Of a DNA stretch of 64,000 nucleotides, positions 11,769-14,264 are shown piece by piece. The translations under genes and the position numbers were made by a program. The DNA is taken from the NCBI GenBank assembly GCA_964650515.1, contig CAZYUB010000009.1, forward strand, positions 25,093 to 89,092, in the 5' to 3' direction. The first letter of the stretch is position 1, and every line of letters starts with the position of its first letter. The notes beneath the pieces are model-generated. The model searched no databases, was not told the origin of the DNA, and saw only the letters and a program-made list of their open reading frames with translations. Source of the DNA: an uncultured Planctomycetia bacterium. GTDB lineage: Bacteria; Omnitrophota; Gorgyraeia; Pluralincolimonadales; Pluralincolimonadaceae.

Positions 11769-14264
11769 ATGTTAAGGGAAAGGAAGGGCGTCGCGCTTAT
11801 AATCACGGTAGGCGTGTTATCGCTCATGGCGATACTTGCGACGTCTTTCGCCTATAATATGATGTTCGACCTCAAGGGCTCGGCGAACCAGGTATTCAAG
11901 ATGAAAGCCAAGAACGCCGCCGATGCCGGAATAGCCCTCGCGATCGCCTATATGCGCAACCTCGCCCAAACGGATTTTAACGCCGTACCGACGGCGTCAT
12001 GCGATTGGGACTATACGAGCGCGTCGAGCCCGTCTTTCGACGCGCGCGACGGGGCCGCGAACAATTCCACAAGCGGCTCCCTCGGTAATGTCGGCCGTAA
12101 CAGCATAGCCGTATACTCGCTGAAAGTTGTCGACACCAACTCGCAGATAAACGTCAATGACACGAATCCCAATTTAAGGAATATCCTCGGCAATCTTGCG
12201 GAGGTCCTCGGCCTCGCGAGGTCGGACGGTGAAGCTATCGCCGACAACGCAAGCAGGCCGTTCTCGACGAAAGAAGAAGTGATGACTTCGACGGGGTGGA
12301 CAACCGCGAAATATGCCGTGATCAGGGATTTTATAACCGTGAACGGCTATTTCGACGACAACAGCGAGGATTCCACCGCCCCGGTCCCATTCGGGCCGGG
12401 AAGTTACCAGAGGAAGGCGCCGGTAAACATAAATACCGCGAGTTCCGAGGTCCTGCAGGCCGTCCTAAGGGGAGTGATCACCGACGCGCAGGCGGCGGAC
12501 CTTGCGGCCACTATCATCGTCCAGCGTGGCATCGCCCCTTTCAGGGGATGGAATGGAGTGTCGGCGGCGGGCGGTTTTGACGATTTTATTGACAATGTTT
12601 CAATAACACCCGCGCTCGGTTTAACCGACAGGGCGAACATAAAAAATAACGCCAACCCTAACAGGATAAAGCCCTCGACGAGCACCACGGACTTCTGCTT
12701 CAACCCTGGCGGATACTTCGAGATGACATCCTCCGGGGCGACGGGCATTGACGCCAATTCAGACGGGGACCTTTCGGATATGATCGACATGGTATCGGCC
12801 AGGTGGGAGACCGTTGCGGTCGCCAGGATATACGAGGTCCTGAATTATACGACAAAAGAGCAATTCCGCGGTGAGGACGCCAATTATAACGGTATATTGG
12901 ATCCGGGCGAAGACAGGAACGGCAACGGCGTCCTTGACCTGCCTGTTTTTTCGAGGGTGACATGGCTGAATTCGTGCCCCGTCCTGTCCACCGACGACCA
13001 GGGGCTTGCTTATAGCGCGAACTATTCAACGGTACCTAATTCGTTAAAACTCGGCTTCTGGGATGATTTCGACGAAGACAACGACAATGTCAACAAGAAC
13101 GGATACAGCTGGTCGAACTGGCAGCAGCAGAACGGGATATTGAACATAACGGACAGCGACGCTGACGGCGAATGCGAGATGTGGGGCTCAGGATGGCCGA
13201 AATTCGCGCTGGCTGATACCGGCAGATGGACATTCGGCAACACATTCTCTTTCCGCATCTCCTTAAGGCCATCCCCGGGAGGCGACGGGTGGGAGGATTC
13301 CGGGCATATAGATTTTTCGTGGGCGGGCCAGGTCAAGGGGAAGCTGTGGACGCAGAATTGGGGTTTCCAGTATGCCCCGAGAAGGGATATAACCCGTCCG
13401 GGATGGACGGTCGCAAATGATTCCGCCACAAGCGAACCGTCGTCGGCAAGAGAGGGCAAGGATTTCGCGGACAGCAAAGTGCTGCTGCATATGTGGAAGA
13501 ACAGCCCCGCATTAAGGAACGAGAGAAGCTATAACCTCGGGTATCTTTACGGGCTTAGCGACCCCCAGCTCAACCATTATTTTGATTACACAACGACCTC
13601 AGGCGACCAGGGTTCCGAGCAGTTCCATGGCGTATGTCCTGTTAAGGAGACCCTGAAGCTTGTTGTCAGCAACGCGCAGAGCCCCAATTACCGCGTGTAT
13701 CTCGCAGTAGGGCAGGGTTGGCACAGGTATTATAACTTCAGTAACGGATGGTTCCTGAGCAATGTGGGTTTCAGCCCGGTGACCACTACTTATGTCATGA
13801 TACCGTTCCATGCCGACGCGTCGAACGAACTCAAGCGCGACAGGTACGGTTTCTGGACTATAACTAATAACGACCTTAACAGCTGGCAGCTTACGCAATG
13901 GTATACGGTCCTTTACGGGAATAACGCTTCCCCGAAATGGGATGAGCTGAGGATAATATCGTCGGACGGCACATACCGCTGCCCGACTTTCATGGCCGGC
14001 GAGAACGTAAGATGGGGGACTGTATCCTGGACAACGACTATACCGTCAACCGCTAACGCGTCATCCGAGCAGGTCTCGATGCAGGTTGACACGGGCACCG
14101 GCGCGGGGGCGGTATCGAAAGACGGCCCGATAGGAGGCGTTTCTGCTGGCGCGGCTTTTATCGCGACGTTTTCGAGCAATAACGCCGATTACGCGGAGAC
14201 GCCGGTCCTCGAAGACGTAACGTTGACCTATCTTCCGCCGGTTGAGATCGTATACCATAAATAG
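11769..14264 (+). CDS. Giant GspK-like pseudopilin paralog 2 (831 aa) with tandem EF-hand-like Ca-binding loops
   Basis: N-terminus RKG|VALIITVGVLSLMAILATSFA has no Glu+5. PVNINTASSEVLQAVLRGV resembles the GspK HhH-like motif. DANYNGILDPGE + DRNGNGVLD loops. Shared motifs SLKLGFWDDFDEDND and WLNSCP. Confidence 0.7.
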   Translation: MLRERKGVALIITVGVLSLMAILATSFAYNMMFDLKGSANQVFKMKAKNAADAGIALAIAYMRNLAQTDFNAVPTASCDWDYTSASSPSFDARDGAANNSTSGSLGNVGRNSIAVYSLKVVDTNSQINVNDTNPNLRNILGNLAEVLGLARSDGEAIADNASRPFSTKEEVMTSTGWTTAKYAVIRDFITVNGYFDDNSEDSTAPVPFGPGSYQRKAPVNINTASSEVLQAVLRGVITDAQAADLAATIIVQRGIAPFRGWNGVSAAGGFDDFIDNVSITPALGLTDRANIKNNANPNRIKPSTSTTDFCFNPGGYFEMTSSGATGIDANSDGDLSDMIDMVSARWETVAVARIYEVLNYTTKEQFRGEDANYNGILDPGEDRNGNGVLDLPVFSRVTWLNSCPVLSTDDQGLAYSANYSTVPNSLKLGFWDDFDEDNDNVNKNGYSWSNWQQQNGILNITDSDADGECEMWGSGWPKFALADTGRWTFGNTFSFRISLRPSPGGDGWEDSGHIDFSWAGQVKGKLWTQNWGFQYAPRRDITRPGWTVANDSATSEPSSAREGKDFADSKVLLHMWKNSPALRNERSYNLGYLYGLSDPQLNHYFDYTTTSGDQGSEQFHGVCPVKETLKLVVSNAQSPNYRVYLAVGQGWHRYYNFSNGWFLSNVGFSPVTTTYVMIPFHADASNELKRDRYGFWTITNNDLNSWQLTQWYTVLYGNNASPKWDELRIISSDGTYRCPTFMAGENVRWGTVSWTTTIPSTANASSEQVSMQVDTGTGAGAVSKDGPIGGVSAGAAFIATFSSNNADYAETPVLEDVTLTYLPPVEIVYHK
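12873..12938 (+). other. Tandem EF-hand-like Ca2+-binding loops (DANYNGILDPGE-DRNGNGVLD) in giant paralog 2
   Basis: Matches the canonical EF loop pattern D-x-N-x-N-G-x-(I/L)-x-x-x-E. A second copy of the motif lies in paralog 3 at ~16745-16807. Confidence 0.55.

Follow-up and report, generated by a model that had tools for sequence, protein, structure and literature searches.

Here we describe a pair of predicted calcium (Ca) loops in two giant pseudopilins, K2 and K3, encoded in a 64,000-nucleotide stretch of DNA from an uncultured bacterium of the candidate phylum Omnitrophota (contig CAZYUB010000009.1 of assembly GCA_964650515.1), which we call the window. The two loops abut in the neck that joins an N-terminal GspK-type pilin module to a lectin-like C-terminal head, and we propose, with a probability that we put at roughly 55%, that they bind Ca as an optional structural staple and thereby give order to the neck of a tip adhesin. 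The proposal starts from what can be read off directly, namely the sequence of the loops, their pattern of conservation, a predicted coil, the architecture of the domains and the distribution of the pair among relatives; to these it adds Ca occupancy, a stoichiometry and a stiffening role, each of which we infer. Although they look like EF-hand loops, they are not true EF-hands; to judge from their sequence, their place is probably in the wider Dx[DN]xDG class, Ca loops without helices that are known from SdrD, PilY1, the integrins and thrombospondin type 3 repeats.

K2 is a GspK-family minor pseudopilin of 831 residues (11769..14264, + strand), and K3 is its paralog, with an open reading frame (ORF) of 896 residues (15530..18220, +). 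Translated in frame, positions 12873-12938 (+) give EDANYNGILDPGEDRNGNGVLD and positions 16745-16807 (+) give DANYNGILDAGEDANGNGAID; a sequence-only reading of the same DNA had placed the loop pair in these two paralogs, and both translations agree with it. In K2, loop 1 is the 12-residue, EF-hand-like DANYNGILDPGE (residues 370-381; 12876..12911, +), with D1, N3, N5, G6, L8, D9 and E12 at their expected places, and it is followed by loop 2, the 9-residue DRNGNGVLD of Dx[DN]xDG type (residues 382-390; 12912..12938, +), which ends at D9 and lacks the acidic residue at position 12. The corresponding loops of K3 are DANYNGILDAGE (residues 406-417 in the numbering of the 896-residue ORF; 16745..16780, +) and DANGNGAID (residues 418-426; 16781..16807, +).

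When each protein was shuffled 20,000 times with its composition preserved, the 12-residue loop pattern was expected 0.001 times per protein, the 9-residue loop 0.01 times and the bare Dx[DN]x[DN]G motif 0.1 times. K2 and K3 contain four Dx[DN]x[DN]G motifs each, and when all 64 kb of the window were scanned in six frames, the 9-residue pattern came up only in these two proteins. They are 51% identical overall and identical at 18 of the 22 residues of the loop segment, and the best-conserved run of 21 residues between them lies around residues 355-390. At 13 of the 18 identical codons the two genes differ synonymously, which points to purifying selection at the protein level and rules out recent gene conversion as the source of the identity; a tandem duplication of DNA was likewise rejected as its source, since the DNA contains no tandem repeat. 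Residues were then counted in the 34 homologs that carry the insertion, taken from a family alignment of 52 relatives and unfiltered for the motif. Loop 1 keeps D1 in 32 of them, N3 in 32 (with Asp in two more), N5 in 31, G6 in 21, L8 in 27, D9 in 31 and E12 in 32 (again with Asp in two more), while loop 2 keeps D1 in 30, N3 in 31, N5 in 30, G6 in 32 and D9 in 30, with Glu at position 12 in none; positions 2, 7 and 10 vary freely. Taken together, the odds from shuffling, the conservation and the synonymous codons indicate that the loop pair is real, non-random and kept by selection on the protein.

The sequence-only reading had gone further and called the loops canonical EF-hands that fit the consensus exactly. 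The six positions that it named are present, and the character of a Ca-binding loop appears to hold as well, judging by ligand positions kept in 30 to 32 of the 34 homologs and by a set of best matches in the PDB that are all Ca-binding proteins. The exact fit and the canonical label do not survive. The PROSITE pattern PS00018, as we transcribed it, finds no match in K2, K3 or K1 (a third giant paralog from the same operon), as the aromatic Tyr at loop position 4 and Asp in place of a hydrophobic residue at 13 are disallowed, and loop 2 has Val or Thr at position 12 where loop 1 has Glu. Scans against the Pfam EF-hand families, with whole proteins or with the isolated segment at E-values up to 10, gave no match. 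The helices that would enter and leave each loop are not present in the predicted structures, which have only a 5-residue helix upstream, and positions 10-11, where an exiting helix would start, are Pro/Gly or Ala/Gly. The loops are also contiguous, with E12 of the first directly followed by D1 of the second, leaving no helix-linker-helix and no four-helix lobe. Pattern, Pfam scans and predicted secondary structure thus rule out membership of the canonical EF-hand family.

Loops of the Dx[DN]xDG class are known from at least 16 structural contexts, some of them without flanking secondary structure, in all of which they bind Ca with almost the same geometry: the backbone of true motifs superimposes on a calmodulin loop to within about 0.55 Å and the carbonyl of residue 7 points at the ion. 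The extra Ca ligand always lies downstream of the motif, two residues after it in the "calcium blade" of PilY1 and the integrins (PMC3123361). The neck loops carry such a downstream acidic ligand, at D9 (31/34) and E12 (32/34) of loop 1 and at D9 (30/34) of loop 2. Like the loops that Rigden and Galperin collected from outside the EF-hands, those of K2 and K3 show the side-chain pattern at positions 1, 3 and 5 with Gly next to it, position 8 is hydrophobic and acidic ligands stand at +2 and +5 counted from the motif, and like them they are extracellular, may lack flanking helices or strands and occur as lineage-restricted insertions; they differ in having Asn at position 5 and in abutting head to tail, all of this as known from sequence and models, and a neck between a GspK pilin and a lectin head is absent from the 16 contexts listed for the class (PMC3123361). 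In its strict form the motif fails at position 5, and the neck loops read D-x-N-x-N-G, while four other motifs in K2 and K3 (DANSDG, DSDADG, DNNSDG and DTNGDG) match D-x-[DN]-x-D-G strictly; in EF-hands, Asn at position 5 is allowed "less frequently" (PMC3123361). A profile of the loop pair searched against all PDB sequences returned eight weak matches at E-values up to 10, all of them Ca-binding proteins, and the five that were printed as alignments all fall on Ca loops; the matches include an engineered Z-Ca loop, calcium vector protein, the DGKα EF-hand, SCaMC-1, a troponin-C-based sensor and the SdrD site EDTNKNGVQDLGE.

We built AlphaFold2 (AF2) models of both proteins from an alignment of 48 sequences, with a mean predicted local distance difference test (pLDDT) of 87.5 and a predicted template modelling score (pTM) of 0.85 for K2, and 83.2 and 0.81 for K3. 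According to DSSP, the models are coil at residues 368-392 of K2 and 404-428 of K3, with ten-residue pLDDT means of 85-89 (block values of 86 for loop 1 and 85 for loop 2 of K2, and of 89/85 and 85/88 for loops 1 and 2 of K3). The short helix ends two or three residues upstream, and the first β-strand of the head follows directly downstream. Together with the pTM values, the confidence of this coil suggests an ordered neck and a defined arrangement of the two domains. A confident coil in both models, and not a strand buried in a β-sheet, leaves the loop proposal of the earlier reading standing on this point.

On either side of the neck the models match quite different folds. When compared with the PDB by Foldseek, both proteins find XcpX, the GspK of Pseudomonas, in first place, with template modelling (TM) scores of 0.54-0.62 on the target: residues 1-367 of K2 (11769..12869, +), a pilin module with a helical insert of the helix-hairpin-helix (HhH) type, match the XcpX chain of 9a1f at E 1e-7 and TM 0.62, and K3 matches 9a1f at E 3e-7 and 5vtm_X at E 5e-6, followed by calreticulin, legume lectins and GH16. 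The GspK fold, a pilin β-sheet with a large helical insert, is therefore recovered in the Foldseek match to XcpX. Residues 391-831 of K2 (12939..14261, +) form a β-rich head that resembles the jelly rolls of concanavalin A (ConA)-like lectins and glucanases, with matches to galectin-like YesU (1oq1, E 1.6e-4), Emp47p, legume lectins, PL7 alginate lyases and DUF1080; across the C-terminal halves of K2 and K3 the set of ConA-like jelly rolls includes Emp46/47p, calreticulin and GH16, at E 1e-4 to 1e-2, and Pfam has no match in the K2 head. The XcpX match at the N-terminus and the jelly-roll matches at the C-terminus together identify both proteins, as modelled, as a GspK-type pilin module (about residues 1-367 in K2) fused to a lectin/glucanase-like head of about 440 residues. 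Two strongly conserved anchors flank the loop pair in the alignment of the family, YTTKEQFRGE at the end of the pilin module and P-x-F-x-RVTWLNSCPV at the start of the head.

Profile methods and gene context agree with the GspK assignment. Against a Pfam T2SSK cutoff of 24.2 bits, K2 scores just above (24.3) and K3 below (22.7); K2 has in addition PilX_N matches and a class III signal-like N-terminus, MLRERKG/VALIITVG, with the leader and hydrophobic helix reading MLRERKG/VALIITVGVLSLMAILATSFA, and T2SSG, T2SSI and T2SSJ genes lie upstream. Both K2 and K3 have a short basic leader and a pilin-like hydrophobic helix within a G-I-J-K gene set, and the HhH segment of the K2 pilin module matches ComEA and the GspK 3ci0 in a profile search. 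Their homologs all come from metagenome-assembled genomes of Candidatus Omnitrophota or close neighbours, and some of these are named GspK. The suggestion of the sequence-only reading that these are giant pseudopilins at a filament tip is thus in keeping with Pfam and Foldseek, and its background on Ca binding by GspK and Ca sites in PilY1 agrees with published work (PMC6211770, PMC3248442, PMC3123361).

The pair is far from universal in the family. It is missing in 18 of the 52 aligned relatives, among them K1, whose neck reads AEFYAAWFNDCDNYSEGEIKNVNWLDSCP and which has no Dx[DN]x[DN]G motif anywhere in the protein. Two relatives, P0005 (55% identity) and P0006 (53%), are nearer to K2 than K3 is (48%), yet they lack the loop pair; P0005 keeps a DANYN remnant in its neck, which points to secondary loss. 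For a wider survey of necks we took 76 loci from species representatives in GTDB together with the best 150 of 682 cluster representatives (E ≤ 1e-30). Clean matches have about 7 to about 35 residues between the anchors, and P0044 and P0048 are examples of a naturally short neck (LGAP / AGTP). Of the sequences surveyed, roughly 15% hold the tandem pair, a similar share a single or different DxDxDG loop and about half no loop. The neck is, on these sequences, a hot spot for insertions and deletions, and the pair is an optional, lineage-specific addition to it.

The mechanism that we favour can be put as follows. K2 and K3 would be modular minor pseudopilins, in which an N-terminal GspK-type module, of the kind that caps the filament tip in type II secretion systems, carries a C-terminal ConA-like β-sandwich head, and the 21-residue segment would be the neck that joins them, made of two abutting helix-less loops of the Dx[DN]xDG class. 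Loop 1 would offer D1, N3, N5, the carbonyl of residue 7, D9 and E12 as ligands, and loop 2 would offer D1, N3, N5, the carbonyl of residue 7 and D9, as in the 9-residue sites of PilY1 and the integrins. In the Ca-rich surroundings outside the cell, one ion would be taken up by each loop, and with the ions in place a linker rich in Gly, Asn and Asp would become an ordered staple, resistant to proteases and able to bear load, that holds the exposed lectin-like head fixed on a pilin body buried in the tip complex. The module would be an optional neck addition of certain lineages and would stand outside the core mechanism of the filament. We prefer a structural role because the neck is predicted to be ordered, the location is extracellular, the known Ca sites of pseudopilins are stabilising and the module is dispensable in close relatives. 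GspK/XcpX has two or three Ca sites with a dissociation constant of about 26 µM (PMC6211770), the Ca sites of PulG/OutG govern stability and assembly, and the pseudopilin sites of GspG, PulG and XcpX are structural (PMC13081927, PMC6211770).

Several observations weigh against the staple. The PDB matches are all statistically weak, at E 0.05 or higher, because the query is short, and the assignment of the head to the lectins is given by Foldseek matches at E about 1e-4 and TM 0.35-0.5. Asn stands at positions 3 and 5 in both loops, which leaves only two or three acidic ligands per loop; G6 of loop 1 is replaced by Leu, Ser, Asp or Asn in 13 of the 34 homologs, and the conserved Tyr at position 4 is atypical. 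The conservation of Asp, Asn and Gly could in part reflect their propensity for turns. The same irregularities, along with the lack of Pfam and PROSITE EF-hand matches and the quite different neck fillings that the family tolerates, would fit a segment that binds no metal at all, a spacer of Asx-turns and Gly in which turns and the packing of Y4, L8 and L8' on both domains account for what is conserved. We consider such a spacer unlikely, since the 1-3-5-9-12 spacing is exact, occurs twice in tandem and keeps its acidic residue at 1, 9 and 12, the same register recurs in arrays of the unrelated proteins P0052 and P0053, and the look-alikes in the PDB are solely Ca loops.

Less likely still is a regulatory Ca sensor, in which binding and release of Ca at the neck would switch the state of the tip and so control extension, retraction or adhesion in the manner of PilY1 851-859. 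PilY1 regulates pilus biogenesis through a 9-residue Dx[DN]xDG site that ends in Asp, as loop 2 does (PMC3248442; PMC3123361), few acidic ligands of the DxNxNG kind could mean a weak and titratable affinity, and a position between modules would suit a conformational switch. Against this, neither a PilT-type retraction ATPase nor a PilY1 homolog turned up among the window ORFs scanned, both ATPases being GspE/PilB-like with MshEN domains, K2 and K3 are not PilY1 homologs, and the loops are missing from K1 of the same operon and from a third of the relatives. External Ca is, moreover, normally far above the affinities typical of such loops. The pseudopilin Ca sites known so far are structural (PMC13081927).

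A bolder idea takes in loops from beyond the neck. A cassette of the form GED-x-N-x-N-G-x-L-D-x-x-E-D-x-N-x-N-G-x-L-D lies just after the N-terminal helix in the distant GspK-like proteins P0050 (about residues 128-152), P0178 (about 146) and P0179 (about 84) and in an ORF of locus L052 (about 83), and in all four its G-E-D comes after an aromatic residue and one more residue. The unrelated pseudopilin P0053 has three copies (residues 387-412, 531-556 and 562-587), and the repeat forms an array of 11 loops in the β-helix protein P0052 (residues 653-875). No curated Pfam family covers the 12-residue repeat, to which only DUF7151 comes close, below threshold (E 0.007-0.056), and a large protein database queried with the P0052 array returned only two matches. 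The 24-residue unit GED-x-N-x-N-G-x-L-D-x-G-E-D-x-N-x-N-G-x-L-D might then be a self-contained, transplantable Ca cassette of surface proteins in Omnitrophota and the Planctomycetes-Verrucomicrobia-Chlamydiae (PVC) group, and its copy in the neck might work as a hinge, gated by Ca, with which a host-attachment pilus of ultra-small epibiotic bacteria deploys its lectin head; we regard this as improbable to a degree beyond the sensor. The least probable of all is Ca-dependent ligand recognition, in which the ions beside the head would bind a glycan or an anionic polymer of the host surface as in C-type lectins, PA14 and LecB, for although the head has a lectin/glucanase fold with more DxDxDG motifs inside it and K1 carries a PA14 domain, the loops sit before the first strand of the head at its pilin-proximal end, the pair is dispensable in close relatives that share the same head, and seven-coordinate EF-type sites usually leave at most one position filled by water.

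For the structural staple that we favour, known systems offer partial counterparts. The nearest loop is that of the Staphylococcus aureus surface adhesin SdrD (4jdz), where EDTNKNGVQDLGE is near-identical to EDANYNGILDPGE, and whose site has been described as canonical-EF-hand-like without a helix and as structural in role (PMC13174682); the SdrD loop is single, not tandem, and lies inside a β-sandwich (the A-B loop) of an unrelated protein. The Pseudomonas aeruginosa PilY1 sites at 600-608 and 851-859 resemble loop 2 in being 9-residue Dx[DN]xDG loops closed by Asp9 at the tip of a type IV filament, and differ from those of K2 and K3 in that they belong to a β-propeller "calcium blade" and regulate biogenesis; K1-K3 and their neighbours have no Pfam match to Neisseria_PilC, and the C-terminal fold matches jelly-roll lectins and glucanases, not propellers. 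With GspK/XcpX (3ci0, 5vtm, 9a1f) there is homology of the N-terminal module, by fold and marginally by Pfam, and the same G-I-J-K gene order. Ordinary GspKs, unlike K2 and K3, have about 300-330 residues and no C-terminal head, and here three paralogs stand in one operon; the neck loops follow the last strand of the pilin fold and need not be the counterparts of the canonical Ca sites of GspK. The modular architecture recalls PilC of Streptococcus sanguinis, a comparison of architecture and not of homology; in PilC, glycans are bound by a ConA-like module at the tip of the pilus (PMC9934059). PilC differs in its short pilin module, in an Ig-like spacer that takes the place of the Ca-loop neck and in its monoderm host. 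Contiguous loops without secondary structure are the rule in thrombospondin type 3 repeats, where DxDxDGxxDxxD-type loops wrap Ca and lead into an L-type lectin-like C-terminal domain. Those repeats are eukaryotic, far more numerous and stapled by disulfides, with a Cys in each repeat (DxDxDGxxDxxDxC), whereas the 21-residue segment of K2 and K3 contains no Cys.

Cysteines do flank the neck at some distance. Cys403 (NSCP; 12975-12977) is invariant in the family and Cys310 (TDFCF; 12696-12698) nearly so, and the end of the pilin module and the neck lie between the two, which may be joined by a disulfide; such a bond would enclose the Ca loops in a loop of about 93 residues, in a manner reminiscent of the D-region of pilins. 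The four strict Dx[DN]xDG motifs mentioned above are divided evenly, each paralog having one in a hairpin of the pilin module and one in its head, all in strand-loop-strand contexts. In K2 these are DANSDGDLS (residues 328-336; 12750..12776, +), in a β-hairpin loop of the pilin module flanked by strands E316-327 and E341-353, and DSDADGECE (residues 462-470; 13152..13178, +), between two strands of the lectin-like head and within the family consensus IxDxDxDGDxEL. Their counterparts in K3 are DNNSDGAVE (residues 368-376; 16631..16657, +), in the pilin-module hairpin and conserved in the K3 orthologs P0010-P0015, and DTNGDGKAE (residues 478-486; 16961..16987, +) in the head. Further upstream, K2 has two NIN-type helix-hairpin-helix starts, at residues 122-135 (DTNSQININDTNPN, about 12132-12173) and 218-226 (PVNINTAS, about 12420-12446), and the family profile fits the DNA-binding ComEA (8dfk, E 1.2e-5) better than it fits the solved GspKs. 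In K3, the model predicts disorder for the 38 residues with which the listed ORF begins (15530-15622), and the homologs have 861-865 residues, from which we conclude that the true start is probably the ATG at 15620 (MNKRRKKG/VALIITVG), giving a product of 866 residues.

The operon opens with two GspE/PilB-type ATPases with MshEN domains, GspF, a T2SSG-type major pseudopilin and GspI-like and GspJ-like proteins. Its middle part holds K1, a β-helix protein, K2, a 397-residue protein, K3 and a 402-residue paralog of the 397-residue protein, and it ends with a PilM-PilN fusion, two unassigned ORFs, a TPR-repeat protein and two short secretins. The filament machinery is unusual in its adjacent twin MshEN ATPases, its PilM-PilN fusion and its tandem secretins of about 370 residues (1527-4972, 19502-21100 and 23662-25895). 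K1 is a giant GspK-like paralog of 986 residues (7911..10871, +) that lacks the loop pair, which makes it an internal comparison, and bears a PA14 domain at residues 295-391 (Pfam, E 3.4e-8); the next gene encodes a right-handed β-helix protein (10771-11766), and its ORF as listed overlaps the 3' end of K1. Behind each of the two GspK genes with the loops lies one for a protein of about 400 residues with a signal sequence and no Pfam match (14273-15466 and 18217-19425), and as these two partners are 43% identical to each other, K2 and K3 with their partners form a duplicated two-gene module. K1, K2 and K3 may be alternative tip subunits that carry different heads.

Much of what these proteins combine is already established: the motif class, its helix-less versions in bacterial adhesins, the Ca sites of GspK and modular pilins that bear lectins. 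What is new is the context, one more structural setting for the known Dx[DN]xDG Ca loop, and it brings no new mechanism. The literature that could be searched yielded no account of these loops, nor one of GspK-lectin fusions from Omnitrophota, and searches on Omnitrophota gave no mention of GspK, pseudopilins or Ca loops. If the predicted Ca binding is true, its main practical use would lie in protein production and structure work, through Ca in the buffers and the choice of construct boundaries, and in annotation, where it has value because the uncurated 12-residue Ca-loop repeat escapes Pfam. Should the cassette truly move between sites, nature would have supplied an instance of the "loop transplant" route that has been suggested for DxDxDG motifs. 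The giant pseudopilins are GspK-lectin fusions, that is, modular pilins in a diderm candidate phylum, and with them the type IV filament systems of the uncultivated Omnitrophota, which are thought to mediate attachment to a host, gain a concrete structural feature of a tip protein.

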